Source: a virus
Strand: one strand, 5' to 3'
Length of the DNA stretch: 38,438 nucleotides
IMG/VR virus record: IMGVR_UViG_3300045988_048834
Span: 1 to 38,438 of that record
Below, piece after piece: positions 3,466-37,173 of the stretch; the first letter of the stretch is position 1; every line of letters starts with the position of its first letter. The notes under the pieces were generated by a model. The model saw nothing but the letters and a program-made list of their open reading frames with translations, was not told the DNA's origin and did not search any database. The position numbers were made by a program, and so were the translations under genes.

Positions 3466-4707
3466 TTAAACCTCCGCCCATTCAGATTTATACAGCCCAG
3501 CGTCCGTCAGGCCTCGTTCTTTGCACAGCAGGTAAATCGCATCTGCGTCCCCCTGCGAGACCGGCCCTACCGTGATGACCTGTAGCTTGTTTGCGGGATT
3601 GTCCGCTGCGGGCATGGCTTTGACCAGATGATTCAAATCAACCACGCCAGTGATGCCCGGCACGCCGCCTTGCCCGTATTGGTGGATGTGGCGCGGTAGC
3701 GTCTTGTCGTAGTTCGTGCGCGTGTCGGCCAGCCATCCGATGTAATCTTCACACAGGTAGGTGTAGTCGATGTTCGTGCCTGCGAAGGCCGTGAAGGTGT
3801 AGATGCCCGCCGTGAATCCGTGCGTCTTGGCCTTTTCGCAAAATGCCACAGCGATGGACGTGCGCTGGTCTTTCGTCAGGCGGTCTGCGCGTCCATCGTG
3901 CGTCTCGTGGCTCCACTCGGCATCGAAAAACAGCGGGTATCCAGACGGTGCAAGGCTTGCGCAGAAGTCTGCCTCCTCGCGGGCTTCTTCCACCGTGATG
4001 GCCTGCGAGAAGAAGTAAAAGCCGAACAGCTTTCCGCTTGCTTTCGCCCCTGCGAGGTTGGCATCGTACTGCTTGTCTTTCATCAGCTTTCCGCTGCCGT
4101 ATCCGCGATATCCGATGCGAACAATGGCACGGTAGGGAACCTTTGCCCAGTCAATAGCGCCCTGATGGTGAGACACATCAATCAGCACTTCCTCGCCGCT
4201 GGGCTGCACAGGCTGGCCACCGTATGTGCCCGCCTTGTTGGGTATGCCTGCATACGCAGTCGGGTCAAGGCCCTTGCTCGTGGCAGTGGCTCGCACTTCA
4301 AAGTGGCAGTGCGTCCATGTGCCTGCGGCGTTGCCGGTCTGTCCGACAACCGCCAGCACATCGTCGGTCTTTACTTTCTGCCCTACGCTTGCAAGCAACT
4401 TGGAGCAGTGGCAAAAATACAGGTAATTCACTGCGTCCGGGGTCTGGTTTGCGTCCAGCTTCACGCAGATATAATAGCCCCATTCCCATGTTTTGTTGCT
4501 CTTGTTCGTCACGATGCGGGCTGTAACAACGGTTCCTGCAATGCTCTTGCTGTTGTAGCCGGGCATGCGGATTTTGTCGTCATCCATACCGCAGACATCA
4601 ATGCCGCCGTGCCAAATCTTGCCGCCGCCGCGCGTGTAACCGTAGCAGCTGTACGGGTACTTCACGAGATTTCTCCCGCTAAAAATCATGGTATCACTTC
4701 CTATCAT
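3466..4707 (-). CDS. Bifunctional endolysin: M23 peptidase plus GH25 muramidase plus a small C-terminal domain
   Basis: M23 motifs: HGGIDV (HxxxD) and THCHFEV (HxH). GH25 signature: LIDVSHHQGAIDWAKV ... FFDAEWS. Confidence 0.85.
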   Translation of the reverse strand: MIGSDTMIFSGRNLVKYPYSCYGYTRGGGKIWHGGIDVCGMDDDKIRMPGYNSKSIAGTVVTARIVTNKSNKTWEWGYYICVKLDANQTPDAVNYLYFCHCSKLLASVGQKVKTDDVLAVVGQTGNAAGTWTHCHFEVRATATSKGLDPTAYAGIPNKAGTYGGQPVQPSGEEVLIDVSHHQGAIDWAKVPYRAIVRIGYRGYGSGKLMKDKQYDANLAGAKASGKLFGFYFFSQAITVEEAREEADFCASLAPSGYPLFFDAEWSHETHDGRADRLTKDQRTSIAVAFCEKAKTHGFTAGIYTFTAFAGTNIDYTYLCEDYIGWLADTRTNYDKTLPRHIHQYGQGGVPGITGVVDLNHLVKAMPAADNPANKLQVITVGPVSQGDADAIYLLCKERGLTDAGLYKSEWAEV

Positions 4708-4970
4708 TCGTTGATGGTATTTTCAGCGCCGTCAACCTCCGGCACATCCGGTGTCTCCGTAACCTCGTCTGCGCTCTCTCTCGCGTCCACTGCATCATAA
4801 TACGCCTGCGCCAGTGCTTCCACCTCGGCAATGTCCGCCTCATCCAGCAGGCCGTTGTCGAGGTGCGTGTACGCCTTGTCCAACCAGAACGCAACGTCGC
4901 GTCCTGCTGCAATCTCTCGCTTGATGCTACGCAGCGTTAAATCGTGCCGTGCTTTACTCTTGATAGCCAT
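4704..4970 (-). CDS. Small acidic phage protein between the fibre and the lysis genes
   Basis: 88-aa ORF. Its stop overlaps the endolysin start by 4 nt. No family recognised. Confidence 0.55.
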   Translation of the reverse strand: MAIKSKARHDLTLRSIKREIAAGRDVAFWLDKAYTHLDNGLLDEADIAEVEALAQAYYDAVDARESADEVTETPDVPEVDGAENTINE

Positions 4971-4992
4971 TTTATTACTCCTTTCAGGTTTG

Positions 4993-7323
4993 TCATGTTT
5001 GCGATGCTACCGCATCTTCCAAATCGGTGATTCGTTTAATGGGGTCTGCGCGTCCCATTACAGTCACGCTGTCGGCATCGGTCAGCACGGTGTTTACTCC
5101 CGCAATCGCGGGGATGGGCTGTGCTCCTGTCGCAGTGAAGGGCGTTTGGGTGATAGTCTCAAAAGCAATTTCAACATTGTTGGACGCTAGCCAATTCTTA
5201 ACATCCGTTCCAGTGGCTGCAACACTTCTGGGAAGCCGAAAAGCAATAAGATGATTGGCTGAACCTATCAGGTATGGTTTTGCTGTATGACCAATGTCCG
5301 AAACAAAATTAAAAATGTTTGACAAAGTCTTCGTATTGCGTGAAAATAATGTTGGATTATACAGATACCATGCAACGGCATCTTCTGATTGTACCCATCC
5401 TCCTTCATCCATGCCCTCGTAATAGTTATAGCTGCTAGGATTGTTTAAAAGCTGCCACGTCTCCTGCCCCTTGCCAGTCACCGCATCCACCTCACCGCCA
5501 TACACGGTTTCAGGCAAGGTCATTGTGTTGGTGCTGCCCTGGTACTTGCTATATAGTGTAATTGTGGTTCCGACTTCAATCTTTGGGTAAAACGTTAGGC
5601 TGTTGCAAACAACTCCTTTAGCTATAGAAACTTCGACACGTGAATCAATCTTGCGTGTTGTGAGCTTAACATTCGTATTGCCATCTCCTACATCAGTAAA
5701 CCATTTTCCGCCGATATATAAGCCAATATAGTAGCTTTTTAGCGTCCCACCAGCTGGGCAACCACTTAATGTCATGGGTGTGTTCATAGGCAGTCTTTTA
5801 TCAAGACCATAGTTAAGCACATAAAATGTGTTCGCCGTTGCTGTGCCATCAACAGTTATGCTACCGTCCTGTTTCGCCGTGAAAACAAGTCCGTTTTTAT
5901 TATAAGAAGAAGTATAGTATGGGAATTTTACCAAGTTCTCCCCGCACCTTTCAACCGTCACGCTGTCACGTCCCTTGATGGGACGAATGTTTTCGGGGCT
6001 TGGTGTCCCGCTACCCTCCTGCACCGGTTCCCACTTCGCTTTCACGCCCAGCGGATAACCCGCTACGGGGTAGCACACAACAGGGTTGCTGATTTCTTCT
6101 ATCGGTGGGCAAATCATATCCACGATGTTCTTGCTGCTCCACGAATTCGCCCCAACGGCAGTATCATCAATTTCGGCCTTCTTTTCTTTCAGCTCGGCCA
6201 CCGCCGCCGTGTTCGCCGCCACGTTCTCCACGCTCTCGGCCAGCGTGTCCGCGCTCTGCTTGGCGTTTGCCTCGGATTTCGCCGCAGCCTCGGCGCTCTT
6301 AGCCGCCGTATCCCGGGCAGCCTCCGCGCCCTCCTGGGCGGTCTTGGCCTCGTCCCGGGCCTTCTCAGCAGCCGCCTGGGCATCTTGCGCACTCTTGGCC
6401 GCCGTTTGCGCCGCTCCCTGCGCATTTACGGCCTCCGCTTTGGCCGCCGCAGCAGCAGTCTGGGCGTCCTGGGCAGCCTTGGCCGCGGTCTCAGCAGCTG
6501 CCTTTCTTGCCGCTGCGTCGCTGGCGCTCTGACCTGCATCATTGGCGGCAGCTGTGGCCGTGTCCGCTGCCTGCTGTGCCGCCGTGGCATTCTCTCCGGC
6601 GAGGTTGGCCGCATTGTTGGCCGCTGCCTTGGAATTCTCCGCCGCCTGGGCAGCCTGCGCAGCCTCCGTCGCCAGCGTATCCGCTGCGCTCTTACTGGCC
6701 GCCGCGGCAGCAGCCGCATTTTCCGCCGCCTGCTGCGCGGCAATCGCTTCATCCCGGGCCGACTCTGCCGCTTCTTTGGCAGCCCGCGCGGCCTCTGCAT
6801 ACGGCCCGGCCTTGGCAGCATCCGCCGCAGCATTCTCCGCCGCCTGCTGTGCCTTTTCGGCATCGGCCTGGGCCTTGTCTGCGTTGGCTTTAGCAGCCGC
6901 CGCATCCTCCGCTGCTGCCTTTGCGTCCGCCTTGGCCTGCAAAGCAGCTTCCAGCACCTGCGCCGCCAGCTCGGGCGTCGGCTCTGCATCCGCGCCGCCG
7001 TATACGCCCGCTTGCTCAAGGATAAGATACTCCACGTTGCAACTCGCCCGCTGCACGCCGGAGGCCAGCCCGGCCAGCACAAGCACGCCATCCTTGGCCT
7101 TCTTCGTCACCTCGGGCGGCACGTCCATAGCATCCCCATCCAGCAGGGCCACGCGCAGCGGCTCTTCCCGCCCGGGGATGTGCCACGTTGCGGTGAGATT
7201 TAGTCCGTCCCACCCGGCCCCGCGCTCAATCTTGATACTCTCCGTGCCAAAGCTGGAATTAGTCCCCAGCACCAGCTTTCGCGGGGTGGGGAAGTAGTTG
7301 TCCAGTCTCAAAGTATGTACCAT
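4993..7323 (-). CDS. Tail fibre / receptor-binding protein with a long Ala-rich coiled-coil
   Basis: The ATG at 7323 has RBS GGGAGGTG; the ORF track extends to 7392. About 270 aa are an Ala/Gln/Lys/Asp repeat (roughly 6120-6950). The C-terminal globular domain is encoded by low-GC DNA. Confidence 0.75.
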   Translation of the reverse strand: MVHTLRLDNYFPTPRKLVLGTNSSFGTESIKIERGAGWDGLNLTATWHIPGREEPLRVALLDGDAMDVPPEVTKKAKDGVLVLAGLASGVQRASCNVEYLILEQAGVYGGADAEPTPELAAQVLEAALQAKADAKAAAEDAAAAKANADKAQADAEKAQQAAENAAADAAKAGPYAEAARAAKEAAESARDEAIAAQQAAENAAAAAAASKSAADTLATEAAQAAQAAENSKAAANNAANLAGENATAAQQAADTATAAANDAGQSASDAAARKAAAETAAKAAQDAQTAAAAAKAEAVNAQGAAQTAAKSAQDAQAAAEKARDEAKTAQEGAEAARDTAAKSAEAAAKSEANAKQSADTLAESVENVAANTAAVAELKEKKAEIDDTAVGANSWSSKNIVDMICPPIEEISNPVVCYPVAGYPLGVKAKWEPVQEGSGTPSPENIRPIKGRDSVTVERCGENLVKFPYYTSSYNKNGLVFTAKQDGSITVDGTATANTFYVLNYGLDKRLPMNTPMTLSGCPAGGTLKSYYIGLYIGGKWFTDVGDGNTNVKLTTRKIDSRVEVSIAKGVVCNSLTFYPKIEVGTTITLYSKYQGSTNTMTLPETVYGGEVDAVTGKGQETWQLLNNPSSYNYYEGMDEGGWVQSEDAVAWYLYNPTLFSRNTKTLSNIFNFVSDIGHTAKPYLIGSANHLIAFRLPRSVAATGTDVKNWLASNNVEIAFETITQTPFTATGAQPIPAIAGVNTVLTDADSVTVMGRADPIKRITDLEDAVASQT

Positions 7324-7340
7324 TATGCACCTCCCCAAAA

Positions 7341-8648
7341 TCAGTAATAAATCAGCGTGATCTGGCGGTTCACGGTGCCGTTTCCGCTCCATTCCATAGT
7401 GATGGTGTTCCCGCTGATGCGCAGGAGCCCGATCTCCGAGCTATCCCCACTTTGCGCGATGTCGCGGATGCCGACCAGCGTGCCGCCCGTAAAAGTGTAA
7501 CTCCAGGGACCCCCGCCTGTGGCCATGGTGATTGTCACCGTTTTCAACGCCTTTGCGCTCACTCTACCGCCGCCGTCGTGCTTTCCGTCCGGCACCGTCA
7601 CCGACTCACCCGGTGCAATCGTCGCGCCCCAGTCCCCGCGCCGCGGCACATTACCGGTGCGCAGCGTTTTGTCCTTCGCGTAAAACGTAGAGTTCGCCAG
7701 CACATCCGCTTCCGTGGCGGTGGCCTGTGCCAGCTTTCCAGAGCTCAATCCACCGCCGCCGTTAAAATCCAGCCGCGTGCCGTCAAAGGTAAACAGCACC
7801 CAGCGTCCGGTCACAACGCAGTCCCCGTCCGCCGCATCCGCGCCGCAATACGCAGGCACGGCCACACCGTTGACTGTCCACGTGTCGCCCGCACTCCACG
7901 CGGCGGGGACTTTGAATCGTCCCACCGCGCCATCGCCCGTCAGCGCATACACGCTGCCGCTCTTGCTGCACTCATATTCCTGCACGCAGATATTCACCCC
8001 GTCATCGCCGGGGTCGTAGACGCTGCGCAGCATGGCGGCGGTGCCGGTCTCTACCTCGCCGATCTCCTCCCGCAGCCGTGCGATCATTGCCGTCAGTTGG
8101 GCAAAAAATCCGCTTGTGTCTAGCTCCCCCACGGTCTGGGCCACCGCGCCGCAGCGGGTATCATCCAGCCGGGTGTCCTCCACATCCCGCTGGGTGATCA
8201 CACCCGCCCCCGCGCTCACCAGCACGTTGGCAATGCCCAGCTCCCAGGTGGTATTGTTGCGCGTCAGCGCCGGGGCCACCGGGCTCACCGCTGCCACACC
8301 GCTTACCACGGCCAGCGAAATGTCGCGCTTGTCTAGCGACAGATCCAGCCGCAGCACTACGCTGTCGATGCGGTTCAGGCTGGCGTCCGCCGCGGCAATA
8401 GGCAGCGTCTGCACGGTATCCTCCAGGCAGAAGGCCCCCTGCACCTGCGCCATACCGGGCTTCACCTGCACGTTCATTCCCGTGCCGGTGGCCGTTACGG
8501 CAAAGCTCGTGGACGGCTTATAAAACACGCCGTCGTCCCAGTACGCCTTATAGAATCGGCGCAGAAAAGCCGAATCTACGGCCCTGTCGTAAATTGGCAA
8601 GCTTTGCGCGTCGTAGGTGACGCGGCTCGTAAATGGATAAGAAATCAT
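7341..8648 (-). CDS. Tail / baseplate structural protein
   Basis: 435-aa ORF between the Gp37-like gene and the fibre gene. Its start overlaps the upstream stop. It contains a NRIDSVVLRLD-type motif that I have seen in siphophage distal tail proteins. Confidence 0.6.
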   Translation of the reverse strand: MISYPFTSRVTYDAQSLPIYDRAVDSAFLRRFYKAYWDDGVFYKPSTSFAVTATGTGMNVQVKPGMAQVQGAFCLEDTVQTLPIAAADASLNRIDSVVLRLDLSLDKRDISLAVVSGVAAVSPVAPALTRNNTTWELGIANVLVSAGAGVITQRDVEDTRLDDTRCGAVAQTVGELDTSGFFAQLTAMIARLREEIGEVETGTAAMLRSVYDPGDDGVNICVQEYECSKSGSVYALTGDGAVGRFKVPAAWSAGDTWTVNGVAVPAYCGADAADGDCVVTGRWVLFTFDGTRLDFNGGGGLSSGKLAQATATEADVLANSTFYAKDKTLRTGNVPRRGDWGATIAPGESVTVPDGKHDGGGRVSAKALKTVTITMATGGGPWSYTFTGGTLVGIRDIAQSGDSSEIGLLRISGNTITMEWSGNGTVNRQITLIYY

Positions 8649-9697
8649 CAGTGTATCAGCCTCGCTTTGTCCAGCATCGTCAGCTTTTTATCGCCCATCT
8701 CGATGCTGATCTTGTGATTATTTTGTTTAAAAACTTCCCGCACCGTCACGATGCGCGCCTCCAGCGCCAGGCCGATGTCTTCCACAATTACATCCACCTT
8801 GTCGCCCAGGTCCCAGTCCTCCAGGTACTTGTAGCCGCCCGCGCTGGCCTCCACATCCACGTTGTTGATGATCTGGTAGTCCAGCAGGGCCTCATAGCCC
8901 TCCTGCTGCAGTCCGGCAATGTAGTCCTCGCGGCTCTGCTCTTTTTCATCCCACCGGCTGGCGCGGCTATCCTTGTACAGCATCTTCTTATAGCCGCCGC
9001 CGGACAGGTCAGCCACTGCCGTAATGCGGTTCTCGGCCTTGTCCTGTCCGGCGATGATGGCATAATTCTTGTAGTTGCTTTTGTCCTGACTGGCCTCGGC
9101 AGAGATCAGATTTCCAAAGCTGTCCGCAAACGTCACAAACGGGTTAGCCGTCTGGCCCTGGGTGCGGTCCGTGCCCTGCCATACGCCGCAATAAATTTTA
9201 TTCGCGTTGTAGTCGTAGCGGCACCGCAGGCTGCAGGCCACTGTCTGCAGCTGCTTGTAGGCCACATTCCCCAACTCGCCGCCGGTCTCCTGCCACACCG
9301 CTGTGTCCAGGGTGGACACAGCCGGGGCGTCCAGCACCTCCAGCAGCGGTATGTCCCCCTTGTACTGCTGGATCATTGCCGTCACCGCCTCCGGGATCGT
9401 GCCGCCGCTGGCGTAGTACGTCGGCCAGAGGACCTTATCCCACAATAAGCGCTCCAAAAAGTAGCCGCTTATCTGGATAAAGCGCCCCTTGATGTTCTCG
9501 GTGCGTTCCACCTTATGGATAACACCCATCTCCGGGCGCTCCGGCGTGTACAGGTAAGCCATGCGCGGGTCGTAGTCCCCCGCCGCCACCTGCACGCTGT
9601 ACTGGCCCGCCGTGTAGTACTCACGTGTCCACTGCAGATTGATGTAGGGCAGGTAGCCCACCGGCTCAAAGTCGTCATCCAGCGCCAGCAGCTCCAT
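8648..9697 (-). CDS. Siphovirus Gp37-like distal tail protein
   Basis: The N-terminus MELLALDDDFEPVGYLPYINLQWTREYYTAGQYSVQV matches the characteristic start of the Sipho_Gp37 family. The gene follows Dit. Confidence 0.65.
   Translation of the reverse strand: MELLALDDDFEPVGYLPYINLQWTREYYTAGQYSVQVAAGDYDPRMAYLYTPERPEMGVIHKVERTENIKGRFIQISGYFLERLLWDKVLWPTYYASGGTIPEAVTAMIQQYKGDIPLLEVLDAPAVSTLDTAVWQETGGELGNVAYKQLQTVACSLRCRYDYNANKIYCGVWQGTDRTQGQTANPFVTFADSFGNLISAEASQDKSNYKNYAIIAGQDKAENRITAVADLSGGGYKKMLYKDSRASRWDEKEQSREDYIAGLQQEGYEALLDYQIINNVDVEASAGGYKYLEDWDLGDKVDVIVEDIGLALEARIVTVREVFKQNNHKISIEMGDKKLTMLDKARLIH
9303..9319. repeat. GTGTCC-N5-GGACAC palindrome, perfect copy
   Basis: gtgtcc agggt ggacac; inside CDS 8648..9697, where it encodes VSTLDT. 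Confidence 0.95.
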
Positions 9698-32833: not shown

Positions 32834-32862
32834 ATTATAGCATCTCTTAGAAAACTTGTCAA
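32834..32862 (-). promoter_or_regulatory. Early lytic promoter (consensus)
   Basis: On the minus strand: TTGACA (32862..32857), a 17-nt spacer, then TATAAT (32839..32834). Confidence 0.7.
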
Positions 32863-32897
32863 GCATTATTTTTTAGCTTAGGCAAAAATAATGCTTG
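32860..32897. promoter_or_regulatory. Operator-like 14-bp inverted repeat bridging the divergent promoters
   Basis: CAAGCATTATTTTT (32860-32873) and AAAAATAATGCTTG (32884-32897) are separated by 10 nt. The arms overlap the -35 elements of both divergent promoters. Confidence 0.65.
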
Positions 32898-32923
32898 ATT
32901 TTTTTCTAGAGATGTGTTATTCT
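32895..32923 (+). promoter_or_regulatory. Repressor-gene promoter (weaker -10)
   Basis: TTGATT (32895-32900), a 17-nt spacer, then TATTCT (32918-32923). Confidence 0.45.
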
Positions 32924-32951
32924 ATACTTGTACCGAGGAGGTGATAGAGTT

Positions 32952-33329
32952 TTGAACGAACGTATTAAATTGGTGCGTAAAAATGAAGGCCTGACCCTGG
33001 AAAAGTTCGGGGAGCGTATCGGAATTACTGCCCCCTCTTGCAGCAATATTGAGAATGGAAAAAAGAACCCATCTGACCAAACCATCCGCTCAATCTGCCG
33101 CGAGTTCAATGTCTCCGAGACTTGGCTGCGCACCGGAGAGGGGGAAATGTACAACCGCCTTGATGATGACGCCGAGTTTAACCTTATTATGGAGTCCATC
33201 GGTGCAAACGACCCGGTCATCGTTCGCATCCTGCGTGCCTATTGGCACCTGCCGGAGGAGGACAAGGCCGCCGTCCGCAGGTTGGTGGACAACGTTGTGG
33301 AGGAGTACAAAAAAAACAGCCCGGAGTAA
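32952..33329 (+). CDS. CI-like XRE-family repressor
   Basis: LNERIKLVRKNEGLTLEKFGERIGITAPSCSNIENGKKNPSDQTIRSICREFNVSETWLRTGEG. I prefer the TTG at 32952 after RBS GGAGGTG; the ORF track starts at 32928. Confidence 0.8.
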   Translation: MNERIKLVRKNEGLTLEKFGERIGITAPSCSNIENGKKNPSDQTIRSICREFNVSETWLRTGEGEMYNRLDDDAEFNLIMESIGANDPVIVRILRAYWHLPEEDKAAVRRLVDNVVEEYKKNSPE

Positions 33330-33339
33330 GCCTCCGGGC
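33309..33339 (-). terminator. Rho-independent terminator (minus-strand sense) overlapping the repressor stop codon
   Basis: GCCCGGAG (33319-33326) pairs with CTCCGGGC (33332-33339). On the minus strand a U8 run follows (plus-strand A8 at 33309-33316). Confidence 0.6.
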
Positions 33340-33345
33340 CTTGTA

Positions 33346-33465
33346 CTAATGCCAGATTCGTTCCAGCGTCAGCAGCCGTGTCAACGCCTTGCGCAAAAAT
33401 AGAGCGTTGCGGTTGCGGCGCAGTATGTAGTTGATTTCTCGAATCATGGCGTCGCTATCGTCCAT
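33346..33465 (-). CDS. Possible 39-aa Arg-rich small protein convergent with the repressor gene
   Basis: MDDSDAMIREINYILRRNRNALFLRKALTRLLTLERIWH. RBS AAGGGGG lies 7 nt upstream and a terminator follows directly. Below the ORF-track cutoff. Confidence 0.3.
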   Translation of the reverse strand: MDDSDAMIREINYILRRNRNALFLRKALTRLLTLERIWH

Positions 33466-33550
33466 CTGTTGTCCCCCTTTCGTTATCTTCATTATAAACA
33501 ACTGTTAGTTGTTGTTCAGCTCGCATTTTAAACAAAATTGTTGTTAAAAA

Positions 33551-33579
33551 TTGTGGATTCCCGAACTTTACACTATAAT
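33551..33579 (+). promoter_or_regulatory. Promoter for the exonuclease-lipoprotein(-integrase) block
   Basis: TTGTGG (33551-33556), a 17-nt spacer, then TATAAT (33574-33579). Small palindromes lie upstream (AACAACT-gtt-AGTTGTT). Confidence 0.5.
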
Positions 33580-33629
33580 ACACCGCCGCGGGCGCAAACT
33601 CTGTCGCAACCGCAGCGGTAAACGAGGAT

Positions 33630-35072
33630 GTGATCAAAATCGCCAACAAAAAGAAAAGTACCGGCAATAACAACAGCGATTTCGCCAACGGTTGCATGTT
33701 GATCATCGCCGCCATCGCGCTTTTGCCTTACTTCTTATCATTTGTCCTCAGCAAATTTGTTTGGACGTCGAAAAGATCCAAGCTGCCAAAATTCCTGCGC
33801 GGGGTGCTGATCGTTTTACTTTGGGTCATCATGCTCCTGTGGGGCCTAGCGGCCTGGGCGCTGCAAACCAACGCCAAAGACACCGGCACGACGTCCAACG
33901 CGATGATTTTATTCTGGGGCATCACCGTCTGCACCCAGGCGCTTGCCTGCCTTTTCATGTACGAGCGCGAGCCGGAAGAAAAGCCCGCGCCTCCTGTTGA
34001 GCCGGAAGTTCCGGACACCTCTGCTGTCGCCGACACGCTGGCCGCTACCCTGACCCCGCGCATCGTTTTTGATGGCTACGAGTACACCCCGGCACCAACT
34101 CCCGCTCCGGCAGCACCTCCAAAGCCGCGCGGCCTGCCGCCGTTCTGTACCCGCGCCCCCGCCGAGCTGGCCGACCTCAGGAAGCTCCACGACTACGTTG
34201 TCGTGGACACCGAGACCACCGGCTTAAATCACCTCACGGATGAGATGATCGAGATTGCCATCATCACCGTGGTCGGTGACCAAACTGTAGAAGAATACAG
34301 CACGTTGATTCATCCGATAGTTCCCGTCTCGGCACAGGCCTCCGCGGTCAACGGCCTGACGGAGGCCGACCTCATCGAGGCCCCGCATCTGGCCGATGTC
34401 CTGCCGGAGATTCGCCGCCGGCTGGACGGCAAAACCATCATCGGCCACAACGTCACCTTCGATTTGGGCTTTATTTCCGATGCGCTGGCCGCACCGGAGC
34501 GCCCCGCCGATCTGTGCTACATTGACACCATGAGTCTCTCCCGCCAGTGCGTACCGGCCAAGACGCACAAGCTCCAGGCGCTGGCCGCTCAACTGGGCCT
34601 TGACCCCGGCCAGGCGCACCGCGCACTGGGCGACGCCCGCACGACCCTGCAGCTATATCAGTACTGTGTGCACAAGCTGGATGCCGATGCCGCCGAGGAG
34701 CGCCGCTTGCGCGCCGAACGCCGCCGCATCAAGCAGGCCGCTCACGATGCCGAGTTCAGCTGGTCGCCGCTCAATAATAAGAATTTTGCTTTTTCCGGCG
34801 ACTTCCTGACAGATCGCGAACGTCTGGAGGGCCTCGTTCTCACCGTTGGCGCGAATTTGCGCACCGAGGTAAACACGAAAACGGACTACCTCGTTACCGG
34901 AGATCTTACCCACCTGCCCGACTGGGCTCTGGCCCGCAAATCCGGCAAGGCCGACAGCCTCAAAAACGCCGGGCAGAATTTAACAAGGCTCACCGAGGCC
35001 GAATACATCGCCCTTATCCAATCCACTACAGCCCTGAAGCCCGCCGCCGAGACCGGGGACTTCAACCAATAA
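33630..35072 (+). CDS. Membrane-anchored DEDDh (DnaQ-like) 3'-5' exonuclease with a C-terminal BRCT domain
   Basis: About three N-terminal hydrophobic helices and a Pro-rich linker. Exo I VVVDTETTGL, Exo II GHNVTFDLGF, Exo III HRALGDARTT. BRCT-like FAFSGDFLTDRERLEGLVLTVGANLRTEVNTKTDYLVTGD. The start (GTG 33630) is uncertain. Confidence 0.75.
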   Translation: MIKIANKKKSTGNNNSDFANGCMLIIAAIALLPYFLSFVLSKFVWTSKRSKLPKFLRGVLIVLLWVIMLLWGLAAWALQTNAKDTGTTSNAMILFWGITVCTQALACLFMYEREPEEKPAPPVEPEVPDTSAVADTLAATLTPRIVFDGYEYTPAPTPAPAAPPKPRGLPPFCTRAPAELADLRKLHDYVVVDTETTGLNHLTDEMIEIAIITVVGDQTVEEYSTLIHPIVPVSAQASAVNGLTEADLIEAPHLADVLPEIRRRLDGKTIIGHNVTFDLGFISDALAAPERPADLCYIDTMSLSRQCVPAKTHKLQALAAQLGLDPGQAHRALGDARTTLQLYQYCVHKLDADAAEERRLRAERRRIKQAAHDAEFSWSPLNNKNFAFSGDFLTDRERLEGLVLTVGANLRTEVNTKTDYLVTGDLTHLPDWALARKSGKADSLKNAGQNLTRLTEAEYIALIQSTTALKPAAETGDFNQ

Positions 35073-35097
35073 AAGCATTTGCAGAGGAGGCAACCTC

Positions 35098-35754
35098 ATG
35101 AAGCGCCTGGTCGCTCTCACCGCTGCCGCTGTCCTGGCCCTGAGCCTGGCCGCGTGCAGCACCGCCCCCAGCACGGCGGACACCCCCGCCGAGACCCCCG
35201 CACCGACTGCCGCGCCCACCACGGAGCCAGACATCTCCCTGCAGGAAGCTGCCGACGCCATCAGCACCGCCGAGCAGATCGAGGTGGAGGACAACCTCTT
35301 TGATGTCACCCTCACCCTGCCCGCCGACTACGCCAGCGACATTACCGCCGAGGAGATCGCGCAGCAGGTGGCCGACGGCAAGGTCCACACCGGCGTGCTC
35401 AACGACGACGGCAGCGTAACGTACACCATGAGCAAGGCCCAGCACGCCGCCCTGCTGGAGAGCATCGCCGCCGAGCTGCGCAGCACGCTGGACGACATGA
35501 TCGGTTCCACCGACTACCCCAACCTCACCCGCATTGAGACGAACGACGATTTCACCGCCTTCACCGTCTACACCACCACTCAGCCCGGCGCGGTGGGGCT
35601 TTCTGACGAAATGTCCGTGCTGATCTACTACACCTGCGGCAAAATGTACGGCATCGTCAGCGGCCAGGAGCCGGGCAACATCCACGTGGACATCCTCAAC
35701 GCCGAATCCGGCGAGCTTGTTTCCTCGCACGATTCCAAAGATTTCAATCAATAA
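35098..35754 (+). CDS. Lipoprotein of unknown function (lysogeny-block moron)
   Basis: Signal peptide MKRLVALTAAAVLALSLAAC with the lipobox L-A-A-C. RBS GAGGAGG. Confidence 0.75.
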   Translation: MKRLVALTAAAVLALSLAACSTAPSTADTPAETPAPTAAPTTEPDISLQEAADAISTAEQIEVEDNLFDVTLTLPADYASDITAEEIAQQVADGKVHTGVLNDDGSVTYTMSKAQHAALLESIAAELRSTLDDMIGSTDYPNLTRIETNDDFTAFTVYTTTQPGAVGLSDEMSVLIYYTCGKMYGIVSGQEPGNIHVDILNAESGELVSSHDSKDFNQ

Positions 35755-35798
35755 AAAAATCCCGCAGCGTTACCAGCACCGCGGGATAGAATATCAGC

Positions 35799-35815
35799 GT
35801 GTCCGAGGTGGACAC
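35799..35815. repeat. GTGTCC-N5-GGACAC palindrome, perfect copy
   Basis: gtgtcc gaggt ggacac; intergenic, 64 nt upstream of the int ATG. Confidence 0.95.
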
Positions 35816-35878
35816 AAACCGAAAACCATTTAGATTATACCACCTCCGGCACGATTCGACAAGTATCGGAGGTTAATT

Positions 35879-36931
35879 ATGGCACTAAAAAAGCGAAAAG
35901 ACGGGCGCTACCAGCGCCGCGTTACCCTTTCCAACGGCAAAACAAAGCTGGTCTACGGCAAAGCGCAGGCAGAGGTCAACGCCGCCGTCCGCCGGGCCAT
36001 GGCAGAGGATAATGCCGGCTTAGAGGTCGGCGACACCACCACCGTTGGCGAGTGGGCTAAAATCTGGCTCACGACCTACAAGTCCGATCTGCGCCCGGCC
36101 ACCGTGCGGATGTATCGGGACGCCTACAACCTGCACATCATGGGCATCATCGGCAGCATGGAGCTGCGCACCGTGCGTCCGGTGCACATCCGCCGGGTGC
36201 TGTCCGGCGTGGCCGATCTATCGGAGAGCTTGCAGCACAAAGTGCTGATAACAGCCCGACAAATTTTTACAAGCGCAAAGCAAAACCACCTCATCAGCAG
36301 CGATCCCACCGAAGGACTAAAAATCACGCGCCACGCCAAGGCAAAACGCAAGGAATATCTCAGTCCTTCCGAGTACACCCGCCTGCTGGAGGACGTCACA
36401 GAGCCGCGGGCGCGGGCGTTCTGTGCATTGTGCATCTACTGCGGCCTACGCCGGGAAGAGGCCCTGGGCCTGCGCTGGACGGACATAGGCCCCGCCGGAC
36501 TGATCGTGGCGCGTGCGGTGAGCTTTCCTGCAGGCAGCAACCGCCATGACCCGAGCATGGAGTTAAAAAGCCCCTCGGCCAACCGCATCGTGCCCATTCC
36601 CGCCGCGCTGCGCCTCATCCTGGCCGAAACGCCCCGCGCCAGCGAGTACGTCGTCCCCAACGCCCGCGGCCAGATTATGACCCAGTCCGCTTACCAGAAG
36701 ATGTGGACCACTCACGTGGAGCCGCACTTCCCCCTGCCCATTCACGCTCACATGTTGCGCCACACCTACGCCACCAACCTGTACCGTGCCGGGGTTGACC
36801 TGCGCACCGCGCAGCAGCTGCTGGGCCACGCCAGCATTCAAATGACGGCCAACATATATACCCATCTGGAGGCCGCCGACAGCCTGCAGGTGGTCGACCG
36901 CCTGGACAACTACTTCGCCACCGCAACCTGA
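35879..36931 (+). CDS. int: Tyrosine integrase
   Basis: [12 protein letters not shown] (Arg), [11 protein letters not shown] (HxxR) and [16 protein letters not shown] (His and the catalytic Tyr). Confidence 0.9.
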
Positions 36932-37036
36932 CTACTTTTTGACTACATGCCACAGCAAAGTCAAGCGCCTGGCAAAGCAAAAAAGCAACGCTTCAACGTA
37001 AACTCTGTCCGCACAAAACCGCAAAAGACCGCATCC

Positions 37037-37088
37037 TCTCTGACTACGAATCAGAAGGTCGGGGGTTCGAGTCCCTTCCGGCGCACCA
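37037..37088 (+). other. 3' fragment of tRNA-Arg(ACG), the probable attP core
   Basis: Anticodon stem TCTGA/TCAGA with loop CTACGAA (anticodon ACG), a T-arm GGGGG-TTCGAGT-CCCTT, and a 3' acceptor strand CCGGCGC-A-CCA. No matching 5' acceptor strand or D-arm lies upstream. It starts about 105 nt downstream of int. Confidence 0.75.
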
Positions 37089-37092
37089 AAAT

Positions 37093-37138
37093 AGCCGCGT
37101 GTTATCGCTATTTTTATAGCGTAACACGCGGCTTTTTT
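37093..37138. terminator. Long hairpin terminator after the tRNA fragment, between the convergent int and accessory operons
   Basis: AGCCGCGTGTTA-CGCTAT pairs with ATAGCG-TAACACGCGGCT (18 bp with one bulge) and is followed by T6. Confidence 0.75.
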
Positions 37139-37173
37139 GTTTGCATTCCCGACACTGACTACATAATGACTAC

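Follow-up and report, generated by a model that had tools for sequence, protein, structure and literature searches.

A membrane-anchored DEDDh exonuclease-BRCT protein beside the repressor of a temperate phage: a candidate nuclease for incoming DNA

The stretch of DNA analysed here (the window, 38,438 nucleotides) looks like an apparently complete temperate phage of ~38 kb, with a Gemmiger/Subdoligranulum-like member of the gut Clostridia as its host. Near its integrase gene, it encodes a 480-residue protein whose N-terminal part has three hydrophobic helices, followed by a linker rich in Pro and Ala, an intact DEDDh exonuclease domain and a BRCT domain. Pfam, profile comparisons and an AF2 model agree on this architecture, which an earlier note on the same DNA had described. 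We propose that the protein is expressed in lysogens, tethered to the membrane, and attacks the ends of entering DNA as a 3'-5' exonuclease. Its relation to SNIPE, a nuclease tethered to the membrane that cuts phage DNA as it is injected (Saxton et al., Nature 2026, PMC13190303), would be one of analogy, not homology. We give this explanation as a whole a probability of about 0.5. Its architecture, active site, anchor translation, genomic slot and anchor swapping are observed; orientation, expression in lysogens, substrate and protection are what we infer.

In the proposed mechanism, the exonuclease would be held on the cytoplasmic face of the membrane by its hydrophobic anchor and a flexible linker of ~55-60 residues. 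Its most likely job would be to degrade free ends of foreign linear DNA crossing the membrane. This would chiefly hit the genome of a superinfecting phage, for example by trimming of 3' ends or cos overhangs, which would prevent circularisation. The chromosome and the prophage would be spared because they are circular, have no ends and are located in the nucleoid, away from the membrane.

The exonuclease and BRCT domains

Four genes follow each other on the plus strand. The first encodes a 133-aa CI-like HTH (XRE) repressor (32928..33329; Pfam HTH_19 2.7e-15, HTH_3 1.9e-14; PHROG transcriptional repressor families). It is followed by the exonuclease-BRCT gene (33630..35072, 480 aa, GTG start), a lipoprotein gene (35098..35754, 218 aa) and a tyrosine integrase gene (35879..36931, 350 aa; Pfam Phage_integrase 1.4e-26, Phage_int_SAM_3). 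These coordinates agree with the placement of the two middle genes in the earlier note. The open reading frames are as described there, but a conserved 39-aa ORF with its own promoter and terminator, located on the minus strand between the repressor and exonuclease genes (33346-33465), had been overlooked. No known RNA families were found in the window with Rfam, and megablast of the whole locus gave no match in deposited phages.

The exonuclease domain (residues ~186-345; 34185..34664, plus strand) carries the motifs DTETTG (Exo I), HNVTFD (Exo II) and HRALGD (Exo III). All the corresponding residues of the DEDDh superfamily (DxE, D and Hx4D) are there, and catalytic residues D193, E195, D278, H330 and D335 are invariant in an alignment of 15 homologues. 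Pfam assigns residues 190-343 to RNase_T/DEDDh (PF00929) with E=2.7e-29 and 103 bits, versus a gathering score of 24. The AF2 model has pLDDT values >87 for residues 181-280 and block means of 76-94 for residues 281-345. Using Foldseek, its RNase H-like alpha/beta fold superposes on 2p1j (E=1.7e-14), and comparison with 8zef, 2ido and 4fzx gives rmsd values of 2.2-3.1 Å across 165-172 columns. Among solved structures, the domain comes closest to the T. maritima PolC exonuclease (2p1j), S. aureus DinG, epsilon and ExoX.

A long connecting helix (residues 331-375; 34620..34754, plus strand; AF2 pLDDT >90), Arg/Glu-rich from residue ~346, precedes the BRCT domain (residues ~380-470; 34767..35039, plus strand). 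The latter is assigned to the LigA/RFC1 (DNA-binding) class from its family profile together with a Pfam match that, at 6.4e-4 and 20.4 bits, is under the gathering score of 21.3. The profile of the region matches the BRCT domains of LigA (1l7b, 1.1e-10; 1dgs, 3e-8) and RFC1 (2ebu/2k6g, ~3e-7). The assignment is backed further by phrog_192, which spans residues 185-469, and by a confident AF2 alpha/beta domain at 380-470. In the BRCT alignment, S/T-G19 and R25 are invariant and K66 is nearly so. We take these conserved (S/T)-G, Arg and Lys residues to be the pocket for 5'-phosphorylated DNA ends or nicks, as in the RFC1 and LigA domains. The probable ligands of the domain are DNA ends or nicks that carry a 5'-phosphate. 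In the explanation that we favour, the protein would be catalytically active, a DnaQ/PolC-exo-type enzyme that digests DNA 3'-5', with DNA ends as its presumed substrate. DnaQ-type exonucleases usually work on single-stranded DNA or frayed 3' ends; action on duplex phage ends is assumed here.

The nearest structures, PolC-exo, epsilon and DinG, would also suit a role in the phage's own DNA metabolism: proofreading with the host replicase, end processing for circularisation, integration or recombination, or repair, the anchor then merely localising phage replication or entry. phrog_192 is indeed labelled 'DNA polymerase exonuclease subunit', related loci have no phage polymerase and only DnaB and SSB, and the mycobacterial DnaQ-BRCT protein is a true proofreader whose BRCT domain is essential (PMC11348249). 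This DnaQ and the epsilon/PolC-exo proofreaders share the catalytic motifs of the window protein, and DnaQ also its two-domain order. However, they are housekeeping proteins encoded on the chromosome, are soluble and associate with the clamp or replicase, whereas the window protein is phage-borne and membrane-anchored. Among NCBIfam models, the generic dnaq subfamily-domain model TIGR00573 alone passes (96.8 vs 71.5); every proofreader equivalog is far under its cutoff (PRK06063, 91 vs 389 bits; PRK05711, 80 vs 196). The gene also lies on the repressor/integrase strand, opposite the early-lytic/replication operon, and is operonic with the repressor in several lineages. Finally, it is difficult to see why a replisome subunit would be tied to the membrane, and by an anchor that can be swapped. 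We consider a role in the phage's own metabolism unlikely. Neither the equivalog scores nor the position of the close relatives, all located between a phage repressor and an integrase, points to the housekeeping function that the earlier note had set against its own proposal.

The same comparisons bear on the idea of another type of conflict factor: an RNA-targeting or signal-degrading DEDDh enzyme, a counter-defence protein or an abortive-infection effector, with a substrate other than incoming DNA ends. Prophage DEDDh enzymes with auxiliary domains (ISG20-like TONDOs) counter RNA phages (PMC13344964), and DEDDh domains are tied to CRISPR-Cas and DRT systems in PADLOC. The window domain, however, groups with PolC-exo, DinG, epsilon and ExoX, not with ISG20, Orn or RNase D, and its BRCT neighbour belongs to the DNA-binding LigA/RFC1 class. 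Such a factor is in our view improbable.

Anchor translation, topology and exchange

The N-terminal membrane region (residues ~15-111; 33672..33962, plus strand) contains hydrophobic segments at residues 22-40, 59-77 and 92-110, with Kyte-Doolittle values of 1.9-2.6. AF2 predicts helices at 15-46, 54-83 and 90-111. The linker that follows (residues ~112-170; 33963..34139, plus strand) is Pro/Ala/Glu-rich and predicted to be disordered (AF2 pLDDT <50 at 112-166). Its sequence and length differ between homologues.

The earliest start codon of the 480-aa ORF is a GTG, with an SD-like GAGGA only 1 nt 5' of it. An over-extended, mis-called ORF was considered as the origin of the N-terminus and rejected. 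Indeed, the anchor-region dN/dS of 0.26 versus the L008 orthologue indicates coding constraint, relatives carry non-homologous TM anchors in frame, and no Met or SD-preceded start occurs between residue 109 and the exonuclease domain. From these comparisons, the hydrophobic N-terminus is a translated part of the protein on which purifying selection acts. This removes the concern, raised in the earlier note, that it might not be translated.

The TM1-TM2 loop contains 6 K/R residues, which favours a C-terminus located inside. This +6 loop precedes the TM2-TM3 hairpin, which aligns with relatives having two TM helices. In these 2-TM relatives, K/R-rich N-tails and K/R-rich segments past the last TM helix indicate an N-in/C-in arrangement. 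The charge count of the window protein, 8 vs 5 K/R, is also in favour of C-in. With three hydrophobic segments, its topology is only moderately determined. Overall, charge distribution and 2-TM relatives predict a nuclease facing the cytoplasm, the orientation on which the idea of attack at the point of entry depended.

The reverse arrangement, N-in/C-out, would place the nuclease outside the cell beside the lipoprotein, where it could degrade extracellular DNA or that of adsorbing phages. The odd number of hydrophobic segments, the Lys-rich N-tail and an acidic segment past TM3 would fit. On the other hand, the +6 TM1-TM2 loop would then face outside. A 2-TM hairpin with K/R residues on both cytoplasmic sides is found in most relatives, and TM2-TM3 of the window protein aligns to it. 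Moreover, a 370-residue charged domain would require export without a signal peptide. No case of a DnaQ-type or BRCT domain being exported is known to us, and we hold this orientation to be very improbable.

Although the earlier note did not recognise a membrane-anchored version of these proteins, such versions are common in sequence databases. Of 120 exo-BRCT proteins found among the 150 nearest cluster representatives (50% identity), about 58% carry hydrophobic segments at the N-terminus. In the literature, we found no description of a membrane-anchored DnaQ/DEDDh-BRCT protein or of its role in a lysogeny module. Sequence comparison indicates that anchors are swapped between near-identical nuclease bodies: in P0008 and P0009, the nuclease bodies are 94% identical while the N-terminal parts show 25% identity. 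The anchor is an exchangeable module and may set the membrane site or the adjoining entry machinery.

The repressor-adjacent slot and related systems

In every relative examined, the exonuclease gene resides in the lysogeny region, as the earlier note had it for the window, often 12-35 nt 3' of the repressor gene. At least five prophage lineages have an exo-BRCT gene, anchored or soluble, directly 3' of the repressor. The order repressor, exo-BRCT, integrase is observed in the window-type phages (L001-L010). The repressor-integrase slot is also occupied in L011 (S24 repressor, Tyr integrase, 12-nt gap), and it is kept in L017 and L018, two Gemmiger prophages that each have an S24 repressor and a serine recombinase. 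Soluble exo-BRCT genes fill it in S. aureus Triavirus and S. pneumoniae prophages. A GTDB scan identified two close relatives, both in Gemmiger; the other 78 loci, generic DnaQ-like or distant exo-BRCT, were left out. The slot of L017 additionally holds an FtsK-gamma/Mrr_cat protein with C-terminal TM helices, and that of L016 contains SLATT and ThsB-TIR. Neighbours or replacements thus include ThsB-TIR, SLATT and Mrr-type nuclease genes, a defence-type setting as had been suspected. The exonuclease gene belongs to the prophage immunity region and is probably expressed in lysogens along with the repressor.

The soluble phrog_192 proteins (S. aureus phiSa2wa UYL83194.1, phi47, LH1 and phi2958PVL; S. 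pneumoniae IPP43 APD23361.1) have DEDDh and BRCT domains like those of the window protein, with 23-24% identity across ~90% of the exo-BRCT body. Their genes lie directly 3' of a repressor or ImmA gene and 5' of the integrase, as in the window. They are, however, 306-307 aa long and begin at the exonuclease domain, with neither anchor nor linker. As the soluble genes share the slot, the tether is not essential to the role of the family. GenBank names for the soluble proteins range over 'exonuclease', 'DNA ligase' and 'epsilon subunit'.

The PADLOC check proposed in the earlier note gave a match of the window protein to the defence candidate PDC-S48, a computational candidate. The corresponding HMM (PDLC05027) matches at 2.9e-41 in two stretches, the exonuclease on profile positions 5-191 and BRCT on 338-380, of 411. 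The BRCT region alone gives E=0.005, and the 185 extra N-terminal residues of the window protein have no PADLOC match. Because the profile starts at the exonuclease domain, it describes the soluble form. We found no paper on PDC-S48 in the literature.

For the idea of a nuclease held at the membrane, an experimental precedent does exist in SNIPE, albeit with unrelated domains (PMC13190303). Both proteins have an N-terminal anchor; the nuclease of SNIPE is cytoplasmic and that of the window protein is predicted to be so. SNIPE also combines a variable, poorly conserved N-terminal region with a conserved nuclease, comparable to the anchor swapping of exo-BRCT proteins. The logic, cutting DNA at entry while the chromosome is spared by spatial separation, would be that proposed here. 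SNIPE without its TM helix is toxic (PMC13190303). In contrast, SNIPE is made of a GIY-YIG endonuclease and a DUF4041 (DNA/TMP-binding) domain, without homology to the DEDDh exonuclease and BRCT domain of the window protein. The latter gave no match to GIY-YIG in Pfam or PADLOC, nor any to DUF4041. The order is reversed, DNA-binding domain then nuclease in SNIPE, nuclease then binder in the window protein. SNIPE mostly has one TM helix and exo-BRCT proteins two or three. SNIPE is found in E. coli defence loci, exo-BRCT in prophage immunity regions of Clostridia. As an exonuclease requires a free end, the killing chemistry would also differ.

Tethering at the membrane suits any DNA-import route. 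In natural transformation of Gram-positive bacteria, single-stranded DNA enters 3'-end first through ComEC-mediated uptake. An alternative target would therefore be transforming DNA, the prophage being guarded from deletion by recombination with prophage-free alleles. A 3'-5', ssDNA-preferring enzyme class suits an entering 3' end, and homologues occur in the lysogeny module of prophages of naturally competent S. pneumoniae. Yet no competence is known in Gemmiger/Subdoligranulum, and the co-residents of the slot (TIR, SLATT, Mrr, Ltp-like lipoprotein) indicate anti-phage roles instead. We find transformation a rather unlikely main target, slightly more so than the phage's own metabolism.

Returning to entering phage DNA as the main target, a broader version of this reading is more tentative. 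Anchored exo-BRCT proteins could represent a second, independently evolved class of injection-site nucleases, widespread in prophages of Gram-positive gut bacteria. The 5'-phosphate/end-binding BRCT domain would guide the exonuclease, so that the leading end or cohesive overhang of phage or transforming DNA is erased. Recombinationally swapped anchors would act as adapters parking the enzyme by particular DNA-entry machineries. Soluble S. aureus PVL-type (e.g. phi2958PVL) and pneumococcal forms would be an untethered version of the immunity function.

If so, confining nucleolysis to the site of DNA entry, for which SNIPE in E. coli is so far the one proven case, would be a strategy that is common and arose convergently. 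Its carriers would be temperate phages of dominant human-gut Clostridia, and S. aureus and S. pneumoniae prophages of clinical importance would carry the soluble form. A gene that many phage genomes label variously as 'exonuclease', 'DNA ligase' or 'Pol III epsilon' would gain a function, and part of prophage-mediated resistance to superinfection or transformation would be accounted for. The system would be simple to test: a single gene is involved, its catalytic mutant is clear-cut, the anchor can be removed, and anchor-swap variants occur naturally. Were this reading wrong, the strictly conserved repressor-adjacent position would still signal an unexplained lysogeny function.

Candidate promoter and lipoprotein cassette

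A candidate promoter, TTGTGG-17-TATAAT, is located 5' of the exonuclease gene (33551..33579, plus strand), with TTGTGG at 33551-56, TATAAT at 33574-79 and a 17-nt spacer. The claim of the earlier note that the exonuclease and lipoprotein genes have their own promoter holds insofar as this sequence is present. The -10 element is perfect, but the -35 element is weak, matching the consensus at 3/6 positions only, which is why a promoter scan did not return it. Moreover, the candidate promoter is kept in L008, not in L001, L005 or L009, and the -10 element is not conserved in more distant relatives. As a terminator and the convergent small ORF part the exonuclease gene from the repressor, and as the promoter is weak and unconserved, expression in lysogens is least certain in the window phage. 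A perfect palindrome, ACAACTgttAGTTGT, is located at 33498-33512. An operator that the cI-cro region would share with the promoter region of the exonuclease gene was considered and rejected, since this palindrome occurs once in the window; CI control of the exonuclease gene is not arguable on this basis. A GC-rich hairpin (35759..35787) closes the exonuclease-lipoprotein unit, with a U-tract on the minus strand only.

The second gene does encode a lipoprotein, as the earlier note had stated. The protein is composed of a signal peptide with an LAAC lipobox (Cys20), a Pro/Thr/Ala linker and a confidently predicted alpha/beta domain. Across 25 homologues, A19 and C20 of the signal MKRLVALTAAAVLALSLAAC are nearly invariant. 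Pfam, PHROG and PADLOC gave no family past signal-peptide-level matches, and a weak match to a lipoprotein N-terminus model is the sole database support. No significant PDB match was found for the predicted alpha/beta repeat fold (best Foldseek E=0.016), and tblastn against 50,697 phage records found no homologue in deposited phages.

The lipoprotein gene is flanked by two copies of a 17-nt repeat, GAyTTCAAyCAATAAAA. Copy 1 (35058..35074, plus strand), which encodes DFNQ-stop, forms the left boundary of the cassette. Comparison with L008, which has no lipoprotein gene, places the right boundary at copy 2 (35740..35756, plus strand): the sequence past this copy is collinear with the region after the exonuclease stop codon in L008. 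The lipoprotein is missing at most exo-BRCT loci and occurs alone in the repressor-adjacent slot of other prophages. An obligate two-gene system was rejected because of this presence/absence pattern and of the repeat-flanked cassette. The pairing of the two genes as one module in the earlier note does not stand: from locus comparison, the lipoprotein gene is an independent moron, separately gained and lost, not an obligate partner.

The window, L009, L012-L016 and L173-L175 carry a lipoprotein gene within the lysogeny module, on the strand of the repressor. In the searches above, the protein showed no sequence or fold homology with Ltp, the superinfection-exclusion lipoprotein of S. thermophilus phage TP-J34 (PMC3952083), whose gene likewise lies in a lysogeny module on the repressor strand. 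It may be a separate, Ltp-like candidate exclusion factor at the outer face of the membrane, here co-transcribed with the exonuclease but functionally independent. At other loci, a gap of 23 nt parts the repressor gene from homologues of the window lipoprotein gene, and the integrase gene comes after them.

Domain structure and membrane anchor

The divergent lysogeny/early switch lies within 31.5-38.4 kb of the window, and the early genes are on the minus strand. The plus strand carries, in order, the genes of a 133-residue XRE/CI-like HTH repressor (32928-33329), a 480-residue protein that combines a DEDDh exonuclease with a BRCT domain (exo-BRCT; 33630-35072, GTG start), a 218-residue lipoprotein (35098-35754) and a 350-residue tyrosine integrase (35879-36931). 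The domains, catalytic residues and hydrophobic helices that we find bear out the observation of an earlier note that an anchored exonuclease-BRCT gene and a lipoprotein gene stand between repressor and integrase.

The exonuclease domain is recognized by Pfam as RNase_T at residues 190-343 (2.7e-29). D193/E195 (DTETTG), D278 (HNVTFD) and H330/D335 (HRALGD) do not vary in any of 15 homologues, the least similar of which has 31% identity. The closest matches among solved structures, in sequence as well as fold, are 3'-5' exonucleases that act on DNA, namely the exonuclease domain of T. maritima PolC (2p1j, 37% identity), S. aureus DinG exonuclease, E. coli epsilon and ExoX; RNase T and TREX1/2 come lower in the Foldseek ranking. 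Beside these neighbours, another role in conflict, such as degradation of RNA or of a signal, appears quite improbable. As a single sequence, the C-terminal 100 residues fall narrowly under the Pfam BRCT threshold. The family profile of this region matches the BRCT domains of NAD-dependent ligase (1l7b, 1.1e-10) and RFC1 (~3e-7), and the domain can be assigned from its sequence to the DNA-binding class of BRCT. The alignment shows conservation of (S/T)-G, Arg and Lys positions, which we take to form the phosphate pocket in the RFC1 and LigA BRCT domains. An AF2 model computed from a 15-sequence alignment (mean pLDDT 76) contains three long helices (15-46, 54-83 and 90-111), an unstructured region (112-166) and confident exonuclease and BRCT domains, with a 45-residue helix at 331-375.

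The ORF is open from 33579 and its first start codon is the GTG at 33630, with an SD-like GAGGA unusually close, just 1 nt upstream. This GTG overlaps an ATG-TGA start-stop pair (33628-33633; site 33624-33633), identical in the related phage locus L008, and may be simply a weak initiation site or a regulatory start-stop. Comparison of the TM region with that of the 67%-identical L008 orthologue gives a dN/dS of 0.26 (pS 0.69, pN 0.35). Distant homologues have non-homologous N-terminal regions, yet these also form hydrophobic hairpins in frame with the exonuclease. No plausible internal start was found in the window ORF between residue 109 and the exonuclease domain. Taken together, these three observations show that the hydrophobic N-terminus is translated.

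Topology was judged solely by hydropathy and the positive-inside rule. Relatives with two TM helices have K/R-rich N-tails and post-TM2 segments and short neutral or acidic loops between the TMs, a distribution that points to an N-in/C-in orientation. In the window protein, TM2-TM3 aligns with the hairpin of these relatives, the loop before TM2 holds six K/R, and a Lys-rich tail stands before the additional first helix. A cytoplasmic nuclease (C-in) is the favoured prediction, by 8 K/R versus 5, and more strongly so should helix 1 fail to cross the membrane. With this charge distribution, an extracellular nuclease seems highly improbable.

A large family with exchangeable anchors

With the exo-BRCT body as query, a full HMMER search retrieved 115 of 1.84 billion cluster representatives at E<1e-30. 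Among the 150 best representatives, surveyed for architecture, 120 carry both exonuclease and BRCT; within that set, 91/120 are extended N-terminally by at least 50 residues and 69/120 (58%) have a hydrophobic segment in the extension, defined as at least one 19-residue stretch with a mean Kyte-Doolittle value of at least 1.6, a crude criterion that undercounts tight hairpins. Thus, the membrane-anchored architecture is common, and the rarity presumed at first is not what the survey returned. In the literature and database annotation the anchored form is nowhere named as such, and we found no paper on it.

Anchors can differ between otherwise closely related proteins. The homologues P0008 and P0009 share 94% identity over the nuclease body, against 25% over the N-terminal part; the corresponding values for P0004 and P0007 are 92% and 24%. 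Anchor variants occur in phage backbones that otherwise differ very little (L001 versus L005). Sequence comparison thus indicates that the anchors are modular and have recently been swapped by recombination. Exo-BRCT proteins form a large and uncharacterised family, readily accessible to experiment, which extends into medically relevant prophages.

Genomic slot and possible function

In every close relative examined, the exo-BRCT gene lies between repressor and integrase, on the same strand as both. Window-type phages (L001-L010) have an XRE repressor and a Tyr integrase, with a small antisense ORF between repressor and exo-BRCT. L011 combines an S24/LexA-like repressor with a Tyr integrase, at 12 nt from the upstream gene, and two Gemmiger MAG loci (L017, L018) have an S24 repressor and a large serine recombinase, with a gap of 35 nt in L017. 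Soluble exo-BRCT proteins of 306-307 residues fill the same position in deposited phages. They are found 15 nt after the XRE repressor in S. aureus Triavirus phages (phiSa2wa, phi47, LH1, phi2958PVL) and, in many S. pneumoniae prophages, IPP43 among them, 12 nt beyond an ImmA-like gene, with the integrase downstream in both groups. Examples are the gene at 3998-4918 of phage phiSa2wa-st5.7 (L097), directly 3' of the repressor, and that at 3995-4918 of IPP43 (L098), directly 3' of the ImmA gene. Their GenBank labels are inconsistent (exonuclease, DNA ligase, epsilon subunit, hypothetical). A literature search for functional studies of these S. aureus and S. pneumoniae prophage genes found none.

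From the tight spacing we infer co-transcription with the repressor and therefore expression in lysogens. In the window itself, however, the exonuclease gene is cut off from the repressor by a terminator and a small ORF in convergent orientation, and the gene's own promoter has a poor -35.

The best-supported reading, to which we give a probability of about one half, is a putative lysogen-expressed 3'-5' DNA exonuclease tethered to the cytoplasmic side of the membrane. A flexible leash would hold the enzyme there, and the BRCT domain, by binding DNA ends or nicks, would direct it to the ends of incoming linear DNA. The circular chromosome and the prophage would be spared, having no ends and being distant. 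Against tethering as the essential feature stands the fact that soluble relatives share the slot. Participation in the DNA metabolism of the phage itself appears unlikely, and a role against transformation is likewise unlikely.

The concept of a membrane-tethered nuclease that meets DNA on entry has a precedent in SNIPE, a membrane-bound E. coli defence nuclease (TM, DUF4041, GIY-YIG) that cuts lambda DNA as it is injected and becomes toxic once its TM is removed (PMC13190303). Its N-terminal region is variable and was proposed to act as an adapter (PMC13190303). The window protein has no domain in common with SNIPE and would be an analogue, not a member.

Recognisable conflict genes share the repressor-integrase slot. 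In L017 (6888-8625, Gemmiger sp. MAG prophage), the anchored exo-BRCT gene is followed by those of a 111-residue DUF898-like small membrane protein and a 454-residue protein with FtsK-gamma DNA-binding and Mrr_cat restriction-endonuclease domains and two C-terminal hydrophobic helices. The latter matches the Mrr-like nuclease part of ZorD (PADLOC), and this immunity region is thus predicted to encode two membrane-anchored nucleases of different construction. In a different prophage, L016, the stretch from repressor to integrase contains a small defence island (3746-9031) that encodes, in order, an ImmA-like protein, a DEDDh exonuclease, a lipoprotein homologue (51% identity to that of the window), a SLATT_1/DUF4231 protein and a ThsB-type TIR protein; the integrase gene comes next. 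Its DEDDh protein (479 residues) is soluble, has other, unassigned N- and C-terminal domains and lacks BRCT and TM; the exonuclease domains are 35% identical. The PADLOC phage-defence candidate PDC-S48 matches the exonuclease and BRCT parts of the window protein. The idea of defence or exclusion is strengthened by this genomic context and by SNIPE, and the interpretation as a whole is partly supported: the window protein, a DnaQ-BRCT exonuclease, is a candidate for an anti-invader nuclease whose action is confined in space.

The lipoprotein cassette and neighbouring elements

The window lipoprotein has a canonical signal peptide, a LAAC lipobox, a Pro/Thr/Ala linker and a confident alpha/beta domain (pLDDT >90 across most of residues 71-210), for which searches gave neither a significant PDB neighbour nor a family. 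Its homologues form 77 clusters. The gene follows exo-BRCT in the window and in L009/L010, and a DEDDh gene of unrelated architecture in L016. In L012-L015 and L173-L175 no exonuclease accompanies it; there it immediately follows an S24 repressor and precedes a Tyr or Ser integrase. It is missing from most exo-BRCT loci. The exonuclease and lipoprotein genes terminate in copies of one 17-nt direct repeat, GAyTTCAAyCAATAAAA (DFNQ-stop; 35058-35074 and 35740-35756), and the sequence 3' of the lipoprotein stop is collinear with that 3' of the exonuclease stop in the lipoprotein-less L008. The repeats mark the boundaries of a lipoprotein cassette in the window. Because of its varied contexts, its absence from most exo-BRCT loci and this cassette structure, the lipoprotein gene is considered an independent moron, and the two-gene module proposed in the earlier note is not upheld. 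The ltp gene of S. thermophilus TP-J34, which is expressed from the prophage and blocks DNA injection (PMC3952083), has an analogous position without homology to the window lipoprotein. The ImmA-like ORF of the unrelated prophage L016 also terminates in NFNQ-stop; the (D/N)FNQ-stop motif may be a recurrent recombination junction.

An sRNA-like unit is located on the minus strand between the lipoprotein and integrase genes (35752-35862). It has an extended -10 promoter, TTGTCG-17-TATAAT (35862..35834), and a predicted transcript of ~75 nt with two hairpins and a U-tract end (MFE -32 kcal/mol, z = -4.5); no Rfam match was found. L001, L008 and L009 conserve this region, whose -35 overlaps the ribosome-binding region of the integrase gene. 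Directly after the integrase, in the region of about 37034-37140, is a tRNA-like 3' fragment (anticodon-arm-like and T-arm-like, CCA-ending part ~37034-37088) followed by a strong hairpin terminator. ARAGORN found no whole tRNA there. The fragment probably represents the attP core, corresponding to the 3' end of a tRNA gene in the host. The related prophages L002 and L003 are integrated beside aspS instead.

L099, a 38,560-bp IMG/VR contig, encodes an exonuclease protein 96% identical to that of the window, and in the related contigs L001 and L005 the integrase runs straight into late genes, e.g. endolysin. We therefore regard the window as probably the complete genome of a temperate phage, circularly permuted. 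For both the exonuclease and the lipoprotein gene, the nearest genomic relatives lie in Gemmiger and Subdoligranulum MAGs, and the host is probably a member of this group of gut Clostridia.

A minus-strand ORF of 39 residues with a good SD (33346-33465; unit 33318-33518) points towards the repressor gene and away from the exonuclease gene. Its promoter is TGAACA-16-TATAAT (33518..33491), with a perfect palindrome, ACAACTgttAGTTGT (33498-33512), inside the spacer, and its terminator is at 33340..33318. ORFs of 35-39 residues, of two sequence types, occupy the equivalent place in L001, L005, L008 and L009. On the repressor/cro side, a long intergenic inverted repeat, AAGCATTATTTTT...AAAAATAATGCTT (32862-32899), overlaps a perfect minus-strand TTGACA-17-TATAAT promoter and is likely an operator.
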